32,000 nucleotides of DNA from an uncultured Erysipelotrichaceae bacterium (lineage in GTDB: Bacteria > Bacillota_I > Bacilli_A > Erysipelotrichales > Erysipelotrichaceae): positions 1,200,001 through 1,232,000 of the forward strand of contig OW818668.1 of assembly GCA_942493105.1 (NCBI GenBank). Reading direction: 5' to 3'. A program made the position numbers and the translations under genes. Positions 3,028-28,625 of this stretch are shown in pieces. Each line of letters starts with the position of its first letter. The first letter of the stretch is position 1. The notes beneath the pieces are model-generated. The model was not told where the DNA came from and did no database searches. It saw only the letters and a list, made by a program, of their open reading frames with translations.

Positions 3028-3033
3028 ATAAAA

Positions 3034-3277
3034 AACGATGAATAGGATATGTGGATTTAAGCACTTCTGTCTAGCGAGTTGGAGATGGTGTAAGCCAACC
3101 TGAACCTTAAATTTGTAACCCCTATGAGTGTTGTGGTGAACTTGAAGTAGCCACTGCCGGGTGTTCCCGTTATAGAACTAGGGTTTGAGTGAACCTGAAA
3201 AAGAGACCTTTTGGTAAACAGGGTGGTACCGCGGAGCACAAACAGCCTTCGTCCCTACGGATAGGCTGTTTTTTTGT
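3034..3277 (+). promoter_or_regulatory. T-box riboswitch leader, Asn (AAC) specifier, with terminator
   Basis: Canonical T-box sequence GGTGGTACCGCG at 3222-3233. Stem I has a GATGA...GAG K-turn base (ATAGG 3042-3046 / CCTAT 3121-3125), ATTTAAG 3055-3061 / CTTAAAT 3106-3112, an AGCGA bulge at 3073-3077 and a GGTG distal loop. AAC (3117-3119) sits at the 3' end of the specifier loop. Terminator AACAGCCT 3241-3248 / AGGCTGTT 3263-3270 followed by a T7 run. Confidence 0.85.
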
Positions 3278-3294
3278 TCTCTGGAGGAAAAACC

Positions 3295-4872
3295 ATGTGT
3301 GGAATCTTGTTTGTAGAAGGACAGGCTGATCTTGATCAATTTAAATCCTCATTTATAAAAATTCAGCATCGCGGACCGGATATGAGCCGTATCTTAAGCA
3401 ATGACTTAGGAACCTTTGGCTTTCATCGCTTAGCGATCATGGATGTCACTGAACATGGGATGCAACCCTTTGTTGATCACGATACCATGGCCGTATGTAA
3501 TGGTGAGATCTACAATGAGAAAGCCATCAAAACGATGTTTCCATCATATCCCTTTCAAGGTCACAGTGACTGTGAAGTTTTGATCCCAATGTATGAAAAG
3601 TTAGGAATCGAGATGTGTCGTGCTTTAGACGCGGAATTCGCATTCGTACTGACAGATTTGAAGCATAAAAAAATCATTGCAGCTCGTGATCCAATTGGGA
3701 TAAGACCTTTGTTTTATGGATATCAAAAAGGATCTCGCAAAATCGCTTTTGCTTCTGAAGCTAAAGCCTTGGTGGACTTATGTGATGAGGTACAGCCATT
3801 TCCGATTGGGTCTGTATACGAGAATGGAAAGTTCATCTTATATCATGACATCACCAAAACAAACACTCAAAAAATAACAGATGAACAACACATCAAAACA
3901 TTGATCAAAGAAAAATTAACTTTAGGTGTTCAAAAAAGAATGATGTCGGATGTGCCTGTAGGCTATCTGTTAAGCGGAGGACTTGATTCTTCACTCGTAT
4001 GTGCTATCGCATCTCGAAGTTCAAATCAAGCCCTAACAACTTTTGCGATTGGGATGCAGGAAGATGCGATCGATTTAAAGTATGCTATGCAAGTAGCCAA
4101 GCACTTAAATACAGATCATCATGAAATCATCATGAGTGTTGATGAAGTCATAACTGCTTTGCCTGAAGTCATACGTATGCTTGAAACTTATGATATCACC
4201 ACCATCAGAGCTTCTTTAGGCATGTATCTGTTATGTAAAGGTATTCGAAAGTGTTCCAACATCAAAGTCTTATTGAGCGGTGAAATCAGTGATGAACTTT
4301 TTGGCTATAAATATACAGACTTTGCCCCAAGTGCCCAAGCCTTTCAAATCGAAAGTGAGAAACGTTTAAGAGAACTCTATCAATATGATGTCTTAAGAGC
4401 TGATCGTTGTATCGCCGCTTGGTCTTTAGAAGCCAGAGTTCCTTTTGGTGATTTAGATTTTGTTTCAACGGTTTTAGCCATCGATCCGCAACTGAAACTT
4501 AATACCCATAAGATGGGAAAGTATTGGTTACGTGCTGCTTTTGAAGAAGGAGATTATCTTCCTGCTTCAATATTATGGCGCGATAAAGCTGCTTTTTCTG
4601 ATGCGGTAGGACATTCAATGGTGGATGCTTTAAAGGCTAAAGCTGAAAGCTTATACAGTGATGAAGATTTTAAACAAGGCTGTTTACGTTACTTAGATTG
4701 TGTTCCTTTATCTAAAGAGGCTTTATGGTATAGAGATCTGTTTGAAAGCTTCTATCCCAATCAGAGTCATTGGTGTTCCGCTTATTGGATGCCTAATCCT
4801 AATTGGGATGGTTGTGCTGTCAGTGATCCTTCTGCCCGTGTCTTAAGCAATTATGGACTAAGCGGGACATAA
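3295..4872 (+). CDS. asnB: Asparagine synthetase B (glutamine-hydrolysing)
   Basis: ORF track 3274..4872. True start is ATG-TGT at 3295 (MCGILF, the Ntn class-II amidotransferase Cys2) after GGAGGA. Contains the SGGLDSS PP-loop motif. Length about 525 aa. Confidence 0.9.
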   Translation: MCGILFVEGQADLDQFKSSFIKIQHRGPDMSRILSNDLGTFGFHRLAIMDVTEHGMQPFVDHDTMAVCNGEIYNEKAIKTMFPSYPFQGHSDCEVLIPMYEKLGIEMCRALDAEFAFVLTDLKHKKIIAARDPIGIRPLFYGYQKGSRKIAFASEAKALVDLCDEVQPFPIGSVYENGKFILYHDITKTNTQKITDEQHIKTLIKEKLTLGVQKRMMSDVPVGYLLSGGLDSSLVCAIASRSSNQALTTFAIGMQEDAIDLKYAMQVAKHLNTDHHEIIMSVDEVITALPEVIRMLETYDITTIRASLGMYLLCKGIRKCSNIKVLLSGEISDELFGYKYTDFAPSAQAFQIESEKRLRELYQYDVLRADRCIAAWSLEARVPFGDLDFVSTVLAIDPQLKLNTHKMGKYWLRAAFEEGDYLPASILWRDKAAFSDAVGHSMVDALKAKAESLYSDEDFKQGCLRYLDCVPLSKEALWYRDLFESFYPNQSHWCSAYWMPNPNWDGCAVSDPSARVLSNYGLSGT

Positions 4873-24601: not shown

Positions 24602-25567
24602 ATGAGCCACCTTCAAAACAGATTGAAACCCATCCAACTTAGATTTTTGACCTTTCTAGTTATCTTCAGCCTTCTTTTAACGGGCTGTGCTTTGTTTCCA
24701 CAGAAATTCAAAGAAGTTGTAAAAGATTATAAGCCAAATCATACGTATTATAAACCTGAACTCATCGTACAAACACTCTCACAGCCTTTGTATGTTAAAG
24801 AAAAAGTTGTTTATCGCGTGGATTCAGAAATGGAATTGGCTGTCTTAGCCATGATCCTTTTTGAAGAAGGCACGTTTCAGATCTATTTCGAAGATCGCGA
24901 TTTTTCAATCGATCGTACTTATGCATATCTAGAATCTTTGATGATTCATGCGTTTAGATTCAGTATGGGAACCAAGACTTATACACAAGGCGATGAAACC
25001 GTTAAAACGTTAGATTATGTCAAAATCGAACTCTATAATGATCGAATGGGCCAAGTCGATACAGCCATTGATACGTTCATTGACAGCAAAATCAATTCAT
25101 CTGATTCACCTGAAAAAATACTAAGAGACATTCATGATGGTTTGATCCTGACCACAAAATATGACACGGCTATTTTAGAGCTGGATTTGACCAATATTGT
25201 AGATCATACGCCGTTTGAAGCCTATGGGCTGTTTGTAGAGCACAAAGCTGTTTGCAGTGGCTACGCCAAAGCATTTGTGGGAGTTGCCAAAGAGATGAAC
25301 ATTCCTGTTTTGACAGTATCCAGTACTAAAATGAATCATGCGTGGAATTTGGTCTATGTCAATGATGCATGGCTCTATATCGATGTCACCTTTGATGACC
25401 CAGTCCCTGATAAAGCAGGACGAGTTGTAGACACTTACTTCTTATTGACCTACAACAAGATCACCAAAGCCTCTTTTACGATCAAAGCCCATGAGTTTGA
25501 CGTGGCCTCTGAGACGACCTTGACTGCAGACCAATATTTAGAATTTGCCCAATATGTTTTCAACTAA
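24602..25567 (+). CDS. Transglutaminase-like (Cys-His-Asp) lipoprotein
   Basis: ORF track 24560..25567. I prefer ATG 24602 (MSHLQNRLKPIQLRFLTFLVIFSLLLTGC, lipobox LTGC). The core HKAVCSGYAKAF...NHAWNLVY...YIDVTFDD matches the transglutaminase-like cysteine-protease fold. Confidence 0.75.
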   Translation: MSHLQNRLKPIQLRFLTFLVIFSLLLTGCALFPQKFKEVVKDYKPNHTYYKPELIVQTLSQPLYVKEKVVYRVDSEMELAVLAMILFEEGTFQIYFEDRDFSIDRTYAYLESLMIHAFRFSMGTKTYTQGDETVKTLDYVKIELYNDRMGQVDTAIDTFIDSKINSSDSPEKILRDIHDGLILTTKYDTAILELDLTNIVDHTPFEAYGLFVEHKAVCSGYAKAFVGVAKEMNIPVLTVSSTKMNHAWNLVYVNDAWLYIDVTFDDPVPDKAGRVVDTYFLLTYNKITKASFTIKAHEFDVASETTLTADQYLEFAQYVFN

Positions 25568-25622
25568 AAATAGCTTAGTGTACAATTTAAACCAAATAGT
25601 GACAAAATTTAAATCTAACGAC

Positions 25623-25650
25623 TTGTATTTTGGCAACAATAGATTACAAT
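25623..25650 (+). promoter_or_regulatory. Putative promoter of the leader / ankyrin / EF-G-paralog operon
   Basis: TTGTAT (25623-25628), 16-nt spacer, TACAAT (25645-25650). Confidence 0.4.
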
Positions 25651-25684
25651 GAAAGTAACGAACAAAGAACAGTGAGGTATCAGG

Positions 25685-25777
25685 ATGAGCAGAAGTTTTC
25701 TTGTCCAATTTGAGACACCAATTGTAACAGAGACACCTGTCTTTGTTGTCGTGAATAAGACTAAATTTGCCTTTTAA
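25685..25777 (+). CDS. 30-codon leader ORF (putative regulatory leader peptide)
   Basis: GAGG (25674-25677) lies 7 nt before ATG 25685. Peptide MSRSFLVQFETPIVTETPVFVVVNKTKFAF*. The TAA (25775-25777) overlaps the first bases of the terminator stem. Confidence 0.5.
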   Translation: MSRSFLVQFETPIVTETPVFVVVNKTKFAF

Positions 25778-25810
25778 GATGGACTTAACACGTTCATCTT
25801 TTTTATTGTT
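25776..25810 (+). terminator. Intrinsic terminator acting as an attenuator in the 5' leader of the ankyrin/EF-G-paralog operon
   Basis: AAGATGGAC (25776-25784) / GTTCATCTT (25792-25800): 9 bp including one G-U, with a 7-nt loop, followed by TTTTATTGTTT. Located 20 nt upstream of the AGGAGGA SD of the ankyrin gene. Confidence 0.65.
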
Positions 25811-25829
25811 TGAACACAGGAGGACAACA

Positions 25830-26498
25830 ATGGATCAAACAAATCAAGTATTCTGGGAAGCTGCTGCGGCTGGAGATCTCTCTAAGGTCGTATTGGCAGT
25901 CAACCAAGGCGCTGACGTCAATGTCAGAAATGCTGAAGCTCGTACCGCATTGATGAGAAGTTCTAAACGAGGTTTTGAGAAAGTCGTTCGTTATCTCATC
26001 GACAATGGTGCCGATGTGAATGCGAAAGACAACAATGGGAAGACCGCTTTGATGGGTGCTGCTAAAAAAGGGCACATCGATATCGCCAAGATGTTGATTG
26101 ATTCAGGAGCCGATGTGAATGTCGCTGATAATAAAGGCAAAACTGCCTTGATCAGAGCCAGTTTCTTAGGTCAATTGGATGTGGTAGAACTCTTGATCAA
26201 GTCTAGAGTCAATGTGAATGCACAAGATGATATGGGTAGAACCCCTTTGATGGAAGCATGCAATGCCTTCAAATTCGATGTGATCAAAGCTTTATTGGCA
26301 GCAGGAGCCAATATCAATGCCGTGGATGATAATGGATGTACAGCCTTGATGAGAGCAGCCTATATCGGTTATACCGAAATGGTGCAATACCTCTTGGATC
26401 ATGGCGCAGACAAAGAAGTGATCGATAAAGGCGGCAATAAAGCCGTGCATTATGTTAGAACCGAATGTTTGGCTGAACTTAAGCCTTTACTTAAATAG
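25830..26498 (+). CDS. Ankyrin-repeat protein (six 33-aa ANK repeats plus a C-terminal cap), cytoplasmic
   Basis: ORF track 25767..26498. ATG 25830 lies 5 nt after AGGAGGA. Six tandem units of the form xTALMxAxxxGxxxxVxxLIxxGADVNAxDxxG. No signal peptide or TM segment. Confidence 0.9.
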   Translation: MDQTNQVFWEAAAAGDLSKVVLAVNQGADVNVRNAEARTALMRSSKRGFEKVVRYLIDNGADVNAKDNNGKTALMGAAKKGHIDIAKMLIDSGADVNVADNKGKTALIRASFLGQLDVVELLIKSRVNVNAQDDMGRTPLMEACNAFKFDVIKALLAAGANINAVDDNGCTALMRAAYIGYTEMVQYLLDHGADKEVIDKGGNKAVHYVRTECLAELKPLLK

Positions 26499-26512: not shown

Positions 26513-28594
26513 ATGAAAGATTATGCAGCCTTAGATATACGTAACATTGTCTTACTGGGTCATTCCGGTGTAGGAAAGACCCAAATCGTAGAAAGTATGC
26601 TGTATTTTACGAAAGTGACCGATCGTATGGGGAAGACCATCGATGGGAATTCTGTCATAGATTTTGATCAGGATGAAATTAAAAAAGGATTATCGATTTA
26701 TACAGGATTAGCCCCGATCGAATGGAAAGATCACAAGATCAATTTCATCGATACCCCAGGCTACTTTGATTATGCTCAGGAACAAGAAGCAGGCTTAGCG
26801 GTTGCAGACAATGCCTTGATCGTCGTCAGTGCCAAAGATGGGATCCAAACCGGAACCATCAGAGCTTGGAAATCGGTCAGTAAACGTAAGTTGCCTACGA
26901 TCTTCTTCATCAATAAGATCGATGAAGAAAATACATCATTTGATAAAGTGTATGCTCAACTCAGAGACCAATTTGGAAAGTCTGTCATACCTTTTGAAAT
27001 GCCCATCATTGAGAATGGTAAAGTCGTTGGATCCATCAATATCTTAAAGAATAAAGCCTGGTACTTAAAAGACAGAAATACCCCACAAGAAGTCCCTGCA
27101 GCTTTAAAAGCTCAAGTCGATGATTACCTCAATCAGATCTCAGAAGCTGTTGCGATGACATCTGATGAGTTGATGGAGAAGTTTTTCTCAGGGGAACCTT
27201 TTCAAGAAGCACAATTGATCCAAGGCGTTAGAGCTGGGGTCAGATCAGGTGATATTCGTCCTGTGTATTGTGGCTCCGCAACCCAACAGATCGGTATTGA
27301 GCGCTTATTGGATCTGATTGGAGAATATTTCCCGTCTTATGGTGAAAAAGGGCTTATTGAAGCTAAAAATCTTAGAGGTGAAGTGGTTAAATTACGTACC
27401 GATGAAAGTGAATCATTCAGTGCTTTGGTTTATAAGACCATCATTGACCCCTTCGTAGGTCGTATTTCCTATATTAAGGTCATGACTGGGGTTTTGAATT
27501 CAGATTCGGTGGTTCAAAATGTACGTGAAGAAAAACCTGAAAAGATTGCCCAAGTCTTTATCGTCAAAGGCAAGAATCAAATCGCTGTCGGTAAGTTGTT
27601 TACTGGAGATTTAGGCTGTGTCGTCAAACTTCAAGTGACACGCACCAATGATACTTTGGCCATCAAAGGCAAAGAAGTGGTCTATGATCACATCATCTTC
27701 CCAGAAGGTTTGTTGGCGATGAGCATCTTCCCAAAATCCAAACTCGATGAAGATAAACTCAGTTCTTCCTTACAACGCATTGAAGAAGAAGATCCTTCAT
27801 GCAAAGTCGTTAAAAACCCTGAAACCCATGAAATGGTCTTATATGGATTAGGGGATCAACATTTGGATGTCATCGTCAGTAAGCTTCGAAACAAATATAA
27901 AGTCGATGTTGAACTCAGAGAACCACGGATCCCTTATCGTGAAACCATTCGCGGAACTGTTACCGTAGAAGGCAAACATAAGAAACAATCTGGTGGTGCT
28001 GGTCAATTCGGAGATGTCTTCATTACCTTTGAACCCTGTGATTCAATTGAAATGGTCTTTGAAGAAAAAGTATTCGGAGGCGCTGTACCTCGTCAATATT
28101 TCCCAGCCGTAGAAGCTGGTCTTAGAGAAGCCATGGTCAAAGGCGTTTTGGCCGGTTATAAAGTCGTTGGGGTCAAAGCCACTTTGGTGGATGGGAAGTA
28201 TCATGAAGTCGACTCCAAAGAAATCGCGTTTAAAATGGCAGCCCGTTTGGCGTATAAAGCAGGTATGCCCTTGGCTAAACCTGTCCTACTAGAACCTGTC
28301 GTTAAAGTTGCGGTCACCATCCCAGATGAATTTACGGGAGCCGTCATCGGTGATTTCAATAAACGCAGAGGCATCATCTTAGGTATGGAACCCAATGAAG
28401 ATGGCGATCAAGTCGTCTTGGCTGAAGCACCGATGAGTGAAATGATGCGTTATTCAACGGAATTGAGATCATTTACTCAAGGCCGTGGTGTTTATACTCA
28501 AAAATTTGATCGATATGAATTTGCCCCACAGCCTATTGCTGAAAAAGTCATCGCAAATTCTGCCAAAGATCACGAAGAAGAAGAATTGGAATAA
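26513..28594 (+). CDS. EF-G-like translational GTPase paralog (non-canonical G motifs; not in an str-operon context)
   Basis: 693 aa. G1 GHSGVGKT, G3 DTPGY (Tyr at the catalytic His position), G4 NKID, G5 CGSA. Domain IV loops HKKQSGGAGQFGDV and YHEVDSKEIAFKMAA are EF-G-like. Starts 14 nt after the ankyrin gene, with a GGAG overlapping its stop. Confidence 0.9.
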   Translation: MKDYAALDIRNIVLLGHSGVGKTQIVESMLYFTKVTDRMGKTIDGNSVIDFDQDEIKKGLSIYTGLAPIEWKDHKINFIDTPGYFDYAQEQEAGLAVADNALIVVSAKDGIQTGTIRAWKSVSKRKLPTIFFINKIDEENTSFDKVYAQLRDQFGKSVIPFEMPIIENGKVVGSINILKNKAWYLKDRNTPQEVPAALKAQVDDYLNQISEAVAMTSDELMEKFFSGEPFQEAQLIQGVRAGVRSGDIRPVYCGSATQQIGIERLLDLIGEYFPSYGEKGLIEAKNLRGEVVKLRTDESESFSALVYKTIIDPFVGRISYIKVMTGVLNSDSVVQNVREEKPEKIAQVFIVKGKNQIAVGKLFTGDLGCVVKLQVTRTNDTLAIKGKEVVYDHIIFPEGLLAMSIFPKSKLDEDKLSSSLQRIEEEDPSCKVVKNPETHEMVLYGLGDQHLDVIVSKLRNKYKVDVELREPRIPYRETIRGTVTVEGKHKKQSGGAGQFGDVFITFEPCDSIEMVFEEKVFGGAVPRQYFPAVEAGLREAMVKGVLAGYKVVGVKATLVDGKYHEVDSKEIAFKMAARLAYKAGMPLAKPVLLEPVVKVAVTIPDEFTGAVIGDFNKRRGIILGMEPNEDGDQVVLAEAPMSEMMRYSTELRSFTQGRGVYTQKFDRYEFAPQPIAEKVIANSAKDHEEEELE

Positions 28595-28599
28595 GCTTC

Positions 28600-28625
28600 A
28601 AGGCACAATCTTGTGCCTTTTTTTA
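28600..28625 (+). terminator. Intrinsic terminator after the EF-G paralog
   Basis: AAGGCACA (28600-28607) / TGTGCCTT (28612-28619) with loop ATCT, followed by a T-run. Confidence 0.85.

Follow-up and report, generated by a model that had tools for sequence, protein, structure and literature searches.

In the genome of an uncultured Erysipelotrichaceae bacterium, a short leader open reading frame (ORF) that ends at the base of a terminator-like hairpin precedes two genes, one for an ankyrin-repeat protein (ank) and one for a paralog of elongation factor G (EF-G) that lacks the catalytic switch-II histidine. We analyzed a stretch of 32,000 nucleotides (nt) of contig OW818668.1, hereafter the window, whose positions serve as coordinates throughout. 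Based on conservation and computation, we propose that the leader is probably a transcription attenuator of the ank and EF-G paralog operon, of the type in which a ribosome translating a leader peptide occludes the terminator. An attenuator of this type had been suggested in a preliminary description made from the window sequence alone.

Architecture of the leader

The elements of the leader and of the operon are listed in Table 1. The promoter scores 8/12 and is the same in the window and in its closest relative, locus L001; the predicted transcription start, at about 25657-25659, lies about 27 nt 5' of the leader ATG. The leader TAA shares its last two bases with the first two of the hairpin stem, and its first base thus stands at -1 relative to the stem. 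In the hairpin, AAGATGGAC pairs with GTTCATCTT over 9 base pairs (bp) around a 7-nt loop, with a folding energy of -8.5 kcal/mol, followed by a T-rich tail (TTTTTT at 25799-25804, then ATT). The hairpin is separated by 29 nt from ank, which has a strong Shine-Dalgarno (SD) sequence. The leader SD, ORF, stop codon, terminator stem and T-run are all found where the preliminary description had placed them.

Table 1. Features of the leader and its operon in the window
Feature	Position	Strand	Details
Sigma-A-type promoter	25623-25650	+	-35 TTGTAT (25623-25628), 16-nt spacer, -10 TACAAT (25645-25650)
Leader SD sequence GAGG	25674-25677	+	7 nt before ATG 25685
Leader ORF, 30 codons plus TAA	25685-25777	+	Peptide MSRSFLVQFETPIVTETPVFVVVNKTKFAF; stop TAA at 25775-25777
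T-run directly 5' of the stem	25772-25775	+	TTT of the last Phe codon and first base of TAA
Intrinsic-terminator-like hairpin	25776-25807	+	5' arm 25776-25784, loop 25785-25791, 3' arm 25792-25800
YTTGA motif (TTTGA)	25809-25813	+	Between terminator and ank SD; in most loci
ank with its SD	25818-26498	+	SD AGGAGGA (25818-25824), ATG 25830, 222 amino acids; Pfam Ank families, E ~1e-45
EF-G paralog gene	26513-28594	+	693 amino acids; NCBIfam NF009381 'elongation factor G', 867 bits (cut-off 583)
Operon-end terminator	28600-28619	+	Stem of 8 bp and T-run, starting 5 nt past the stop of the EF-G paralog gene

The ORF also contains an in-frame direct repeat, GAGACACC (25712-25719 and 25730-25737), and an internal hairpin (25726-25747, -9.2 kcal/mol), both present as first described. 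A role in pacing the polymerase or the ribosome had been suggested for them, but both are lost in L001 and are therefore probably incidental.

Conservation of the leader across Erysipelotrichaceae

A scan with the EF-G paralog as query found 80 loci in species-representative genomes. The window and 44 complete related Erysipelotrichaceae loci form the set of 45 used below; two others, L002 and L035, are cut off upstream. The same unit recurs in all 45: a promoter, an SD sequence, an ATG-started ORF of 19-38 codons, a hairpin with a T-run, ank and the EF-G paralog gene. The promoter, of the form TTGnnn-16/17-TA[AC]AAT, lies 22-62 nt 5' of the leader ATG with a score of at least 9/12 in 38 loci, whereas no consistently placed promoter was found between terminator and ank, where this score is reached in 6 of the 45. 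The leader SD forms a duplex with the anti-SD sequence at a mean of -7.9 kcal/mol. The hairpin and T-run are equivalently placed in every locus, with energies of -8 to -20 kcal/mol (mean -11.5), and the stem positions show many different base-pair types.

In 45/45 loci, the leader stop begins no more than 12 nt to either side of the first stem base (-12 to +12); 24 of these stops begin at -1 or -2, the mode being -1. A metagenome scan with the exact motif matched 44 contigs, 29 of which carry ank on the 3' side, followed by the EF-G paralog gene if the contig extends far enough. An SD-led leader ORF was callable in 28 of these 29, which added 21 further distinct leaders; their stops also fall within +/-12 nt of the stem base, 16 of the 21 at -1. 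Shuffling of the ORF interior puts the per-locus chance of a stop placed like this at about 0.16, and the product over 32 dissimilar leaders is 9e-27, a value that may carry some ascertainment bias because we selected the ORFs ourselves. Judged from these sequences, the stop-to-stem layout is not due to chance.

Single-base indels shift the leader frame in some species (L007 relative to L006, L030 relative to L026, and L008). The frame-shifted ORFs still end in the terminator loop (+9/+10), for example as ...LFLRWI before the stop, and the hairpin holds back-up stops in other frames.

The distance from terminator to ank is 26-52 nt in most loci and about 255 nt in Holdemania. Loci of the Holdemania type contain at this point an extra, G+C-richer spacer of about 255-280 nt (L006 3066-3320 and L007 3066-3319; also L082, L101, L112 and L120), with a predicted fold of z = -2.1 and without an Rfam match. 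This spacer may be a second regulatory element.

Antiterminator test and ribosome footprint

As a test for an antiterminator, we computed the folding energy gained on adding the terminator 5' arm and loop to the upstream leader, with dinucleotide shuffles as a control. The mean gain was -1.8 kcal/mol, compared with -3.3 kcal/mol for shuffles and -11.5 kcal/mol for the terminator, and it was significant in 0/45 loci. By this test an antiterminator is absent throughout the set, in agreement with the initial view that the leader is not a classical antiterminator switch.

An in silico ribosome footprint whose A site contained the stop codon reduced the terminator pair probability from 0.88 to 0.00. 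A masked ribosome 8 codons upstream left it at 0.84, and upstream positions overall at 0.74-0.84. From the absence of an antiterminator and these masking results, we conclude that translation would act only through a physical hold on the 5' arm, exerted from the last five or so codons or from the stop. Together, the masking and the stop-to-stem position kept in all 45 loci support the earlier proposal that the 5' arm would be covered by a ribosome that has reached the last codons or the stop.

Conserved nucleotides and drifting peptides

The leader peptides are weakly conserved, with a mean column identity of 15% and a loosely kept pattern of two hydrophobic segments. Between the window and L001, whose EF-G paralogs are 92% identical, 17 leader codons differ, 5 synonymously and 12 non-synonymously in a count by eye, while frame and length are kept. 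The near-identical blocks in this pair are the promoter, the SD and the block CCTGTCTTTGTTGT; in addition, 62 of 64 positions (also counted by eye) are identical from TTGCCTTTTAAG to the ank SD, a stretch that takes in the terminator, the U-run and GTTTGAAC. We found no family-wide arrest motif in the alignment of leader peptides and no regulatory codon runs in the leaders, the largest amino-acid enrichment being 2-fold (Cys, Asn, Phe). All three stop codons are used in the 45 loci (TAA 21, TAG 15, TGA 9).

At the nucleotide level, conservation exceeds the needs of pairing at TTTT and RRGRTGG and at YTTGA downstream. Among the four T columns 5' of the stem in a 28-sequence alignment, two are invariant and two are at least 90% T; over 65 loci, the T fraction at positions -5 to -1 is 0.66-0.92. 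Because a T-run of 4-5 nt, present in nearly all loci, is kept even where the ORF ends 9-12 nt earlier, the run is partly a nucleotide-level element, and it may have a functional role. The frequent C-terminal Phe, found in 20 of the 43 distinct leaders, may be a consequence of this T-run. In the yxjB example, a T-stretch lies 5-7 nt before the pause, the geometry expected of a pause element. The YTTGA or TCTGA motif is often found inside short DNA palindromes (TGATTAATCA in L004, CTGATTATCAG in L029, and TGATCA in L018, L025 and L027).

Proposed mechanism

Leader translation, termination at the hairpin and the direction of control are inferred here, and we propose that they combine as follows. 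When no ribosome is close behind the polymerase, the weak hairpin at 25776-25800 and the U-run would form, and transcription would end before ank. If instead a ribosome stood on the stop or on one of the final five or so codons, its protection of the mRNA would extend about 12 nt 3' of the A site, and the whole 5' arm would be held. With this arm held and no alternative pairing available, the hairpin would be blocked and the polymerase would read into ank and the EF-G paralog gene.

By analogy with known leaders, two variables are most likely to set the outcome. The first is the lag between the polymerase and the first ribosome, as in pyrBI, which would depend on polymerase speed as a function of nucleoside triphosphates or on pausing at the T-run, and on the supply and loading of free ribosomes. 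The second is how long the ribosome dwells on the stop codon, as in msrDL or tnaC, a variable that would suit a translation-factor cargo and allow feedback. A generic variable is favored because the leaders lack codon runs and a family-wide arrest motif and use all three stop codons.

In collided expressomes, the mRNA path between the ribosomal P site and the polymerase active site spans about 34 nt at its shortest. For a P site at 25772, this path places the polymerase at about 25806, the end of the U-run. Given this path, a stop at the stem base makes about the shortest ORF that would let a ribosome accompany the polymerase past the release point. Experiments in E. coli provide a precedent for occlusion: termination fell from ~90% to <10% when the distance between a stop codon and the terminator downstream of it was cut from 28 to 5 bp, and the terminating ribosome represses terminators that lie less than ~10-27 nt beyond a stop (PMC4824070).

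Several points weigh against the occlusion model. The window hairpin is weak, with three G-C pairs and the -8.5 kcal/mol given above. In seven loci (L011, L017, L018, L039, L040, L043 and L045) the stop lies 6-12 nt 5' of the stem, and occlusion would therefore be partial there. Stops within or next to terminators are also found at ordinary gene ends, such as that of the EF-G paralog itself, where the terminator follows the stop by 5 nt. Likewise, a gene for an rpoE-like acidic protein (L098 ~343-708, L104, L113 and L122) ends in ...EEF-TAA inside a hairpin that shares the 5' arm TTTTAAGATGGA. In the model Firmicute Bacillus subtilis, the polymerase outruns the ribosomes, so that occlusion would need a pause. 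The strict NusG motif TTNTTT stands next to the stem in only 18 of 65 loci, and a polymerase pause is therefore conjectural. Finally, the fold of the whole 180-nt leader is not unusually stable relative to shuffled sequence (z = -0.78), which makes the single window sequence weak evidence; the comparative evidence is strong.

Comparison with characterized attenuators

The closest characterized relative of the leader is msrDL-msrD of streptococci, which involves a macrolide-resistance ABC-F protein (PMC10314930). Both systems have a short SD-led ORF, a Rho-independent terminator immediately after it and an adjoining T-rich element. In msrDL this element is a T-rich pause, and the msrD product, a factor acting on the ribosome, exerts feedback on its own induction (PMC10314930). 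The msrDL ORF, however, has 6 codons (MYLIFM), senses macrolides and resides on a mobile mef/msr element, whereas the present leaders have 19-38 codons, encode an unrelated and weakly conserved peptide, and are chromosomal and family-wide, with ank and the EF-G paralog as cargo. The window leader is not a member of the msrDL family by homology: its 30-residue peptide is unrelated, its context is one of chromosomal housekeeping genes, and a plasmid similarity search gave no match.

The pyrBI and pyrE leaders of E. coli work without an antiterminator, and their terminators are suppressed only if a ribosome follows the polymerase closely; U-rich pause sites set the timing, uridine triphosphate is sensed, and the cargo serves pyrimidine synthesis. 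The window leader resembles them in being antiterminator-free, and the comparison with pyrBI/pyrE made in the preliminary description thus stands. The systems differ in the end of the ORF, which runs through the terminator in pyrBI, ends a few nt before it in the upstream ORF of pyrE, and stops at the stem base here; moreover, nothing ties the present cargo to a nucleotide pool. The coupling in pyrBI/pyrE is discussed, via Roland et al., in PMC4824070.

The other analogue put forward initially, the tet(M) leader, is not supported as the best one: msrDL-msrD is the characterized system with this geometry, and what the tet(M) leader peptide does is itself disputed. As in the window, orf12 of tet(M)/Tn916 overlaps terminator-like hairpins 5' of a gene for an EF-G-related GTPase. 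Read-through was proposed to follow leader translation in a model that invokes rare codons and tetracycline, and a role of the leader peptide was not supported in a 2021 preprint. The tet(M) cargo is a ribosomal protection protein, which the present cargo is not.

The present leaders can also be set beside tnaC. In the E. coli tnaC-tnaAB leader, the nascent peptide holds the ribosome at the stop and thereby blocks the adjoining termination signal. That signal is a Rho-loading site, whereas the present leader adjoins an intrinsic hairpin, and tnaC relies on a conserved Trp12/Pro24 sensor, whereas no conserved residues were found in the leader alignment.

Rfam 15 returned no match to the leader at the gathering score, and only chance-level matches (E>3) in 25560-25860. 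Searches of the EF-G paralog literature brought up no leader peptide or ankyrin partner in front of such a gene, and a search joining 'ankyrin repeat', 'elongation factor G' and Erysipelotrichaceae found no paper; a first search on ankyrin, EF-G and paralogs brought up unrelated papers only. The architecture, that of ribosome-occlusion attenuators, is known; in the literature and Rfam release searched, a leader family in front of ank and an EF-G paralog gene is apparently not described.

Alternative explanations

A specific version of the occlusion model would make the leader an inducible arrest sensor like msrDL, in which the ribosome lingers at the last codon or the stop and the EF-G paralog and Ank pair feeds back negatively. 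The trigger would be a small molecule, for example an antibiotic that acts on the ribosome, or too short a supply of termination or recycling factors. We regard this version as possible but unlikely. Its geometry matches that of msrDL, in which a ribosome stalled at the stop keeps the terminator from forming and MsrD exerts feedback on its own expression; with the stop at -1 or -2 in most leaders, the footprint would cover exactly the 5' arm, and the cargo is a translation factor. A motif, [VL][LF]FGG[V], occurs at clade level at -13 to -8 from the stop, and the C-terminal Phe recurs as described, but no arrest motif is kept family-wide and the Phe may be a by-product of the T-run, which persists in other frames. 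Three stop codons are in use, the +x+ motif of the window peptide (KTK) is not conserved on reading the peptides, and the stop context has a purine at +4. In E. coli, UAAG is an efficient termination context; the other contexts seen in the leaders are UAGR and UGAR. A conserved macrolide arrest motif (+x+ or IFVI-like) was rejected, as it is present in few leaders only.

More speculatively, the leader could sense the time that ribosomes spend on the stop codon, that is, termination and recycling capacity, in a homeostatic loop with its cargo. Post-termination ribosomes that linger because EF-G or RRF is limiting or inhibited, or because GTP is low, would keep the 5' arm covered and the operon on; the His-less EF-G paralog and its ankyrin partner would then clear such ribosomes and turn the leader off again. 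We give this loop a rather low probability.

It is improbable that the leader ORF is instead an ordinary small gene with its own terminator and without regulation, ank and the EF-G paralog gene being expressed through constitutive leak-through or from an unrecognized promoter. Many terminators lie within 50 bp of stop codons or overlap them (PMC4824070), and a stop within a terminator is seen at normal gene ends; the loosely kept hydrophobic pattern of the peptide would also suit a small gene. However, the peptide evolves almost neutrally between the window and L001, against 92% identity of the EF-G paralog, and the promoter counts (6/45 after the terminator, 38/45 before the leader) leave no consistently placed promoter for ank in the 26-52 nt before it. 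The leader also accompanies the operon in every Erysipelotrichaceae locus with enough upstream sequence, and ank lies downstream in 29 of the 44 metagenome motif matches.

Factor-dependent attenuation, in which a protein (the Ank or EF-G paralog products, NusG, NusA or another) acts on the T-run and purine-rich 5' arm or on YTTGA and the ORF is auxiliary, appears very improbable. The excess conservation of TTTT, RRGRTGG and YTTGA would fit such a factor. The 5' arm is also slightly SD-like, at -4.3 kcal/mol compared with -2.4 kcal/mol for control terminators (nominal p = 1.6e-5, loci not being independent), but this is far below real SD sequences (-11.5 kcal/mol), and the arm as an SD mimic was rejected on account of the weak excess. 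No known RNA family matches, and an SD-led ORF kept open up to the stem in every locus would be left unexplained.

A classical alternative-hairpin attenuator of the trp, erm, cat or vmlR type, in which a stalled ribosome frees an antiterminator, is scarcely tenable. The internal hairpin and a possible pairing of 5-7 bp between CUGUCUU (25735-25741) and the terminator 5' arm could serve it, but upstream pairing of the 5' arm is weaker than in shuffles in most loci and significant in none of the 45, the internal hairpin is lost in L001, an upstream masked ribosome leaves the terminator at 0.74-0.84, and regulatory codon runs are missing at a maximal enrichment of 2-fold.

Other candidates were also rejected. 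A +1 frameshift at UUU-UAA that would join leader and Ank in one protein, given that in the window the ank reading frame is open from 25767, and an N-terminally extended Ank from ATG 25779 both depend on a frame relation that is not kept in L001. A long-range helix between the 5' untranslated region and the post-terminator sequence, seen in the minimum free energy fold of the window, is no better than shuffles across loci (mean z = -0.36), and an amino-acid biosynthetic leader is contradicted by the lack of codon runs and by a cargo unrelated to biosynthesis.

The ank and EF-G paralog operon

In every Erysipelotrichaceae locus, including L002 and L035, ank lies directly 5' of the EF-G paralog gene (51-89% identity); the gap between the two is 14 nt in the window. 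The ankyrin protein may be an obligate partner of the EF-G paralog. A homologue search with the Ank protein returned generic ankyrin proteins only and was uninformative. The EF-G paralog loci of Clostridia (46-53% EF-G identity) contained neither an ankyrin gene nor a comparable leader.

The EF-G paralog falls under the cut-offs of TIGR00484, the canonical EF-G equivalog, and of the tet_protect models. Its score against tet_protect NF012153 (309 bits, cut-off 775) is so far below the threshold that we do not consider the cargo a ribosomal protection protein. It scores 515 bits with canonical EF-G (2xex) and 416 bits with T. thermophilus EF-G-2 (1wdt), which by score places it nearer to the former. 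In its sequence, KGLSI replaces the G2 motif RGITI and DTPGY replaces the G3 motif DTPGH, while GHSGVGKT and NKID are present. The EFG II subfamily is defined by loss of RGITI in G2 with G1, G3 and G4 retained (Margus et al. 2011, PMC3150367), and the paralog, with KGLSI in G2 and the other three retained, resembles its 'RxxSI' Clostridia subgroup in this motif (PMC3150367). The catalytic switch-II His, whose role has been described (PMC4532990), is missing in 79/79 related loci of Erysipelotrichaceae and Clostridia, 72 of which have DTPGY and the rest DTPGF/D/L or DAPGF. From the sequences, this suggests that the His-less EF-G paralogs form a GTPase-impaired family. Bacteroides EF-G2 is an EF-G paralog that lacks GTPase activity.

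Three further observations concern the operon and the wider window. Under the logic of occlusion, the operon-end terminator would be sensitive to a closely following ribosome. Loci L055-L059 (Anaerotignum/Lachnospiraceae) have a different conserved 5' region, about 150-60 nt before the EF-G paralog start, with an inverted repeat (TGTATATTGTGTAAT ... ATATACTGTATACA) and a small hairpin, and without a leader ORF and terminator or an Rfam family. At 3029-3259 on the + strand, upstream of the ORF at 3274-4872, the window carries a T-box leader (Rfam RF00230, 101 bits), an ordinary tRNA-sensing riboswitch.

Implications

The interest of the system comes mainly from the placement of an orphan EF-G paralog and ankyrin operon under leader control. 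Divergent EF-G paralogs were catalogued in 2011, and the leader gives a concrete, testable handle on their function: under the occlusion model, whatever triggers the arrival or stay of a ribosome at the end of the ORF would decide whether the cell makes the His-less EF-G paralog together with its ankyrin partner. Cultured Erysipelotrichaceae of the gut and rumen (Holdemania, Amedibacillus, Faecalicoccus, Absicoccus) keep the system, which makes experiments feasible. It would add a family-wide chromosomal case to the small set of attenuators that act by direct ribosome occlusion, as opposed to alternative RNA folding. If the leader does sense recycling capacity, ribosome recycling would for the first time have a transcriptional read-out, and a widespread orphan EF-G paralog would be given a function.

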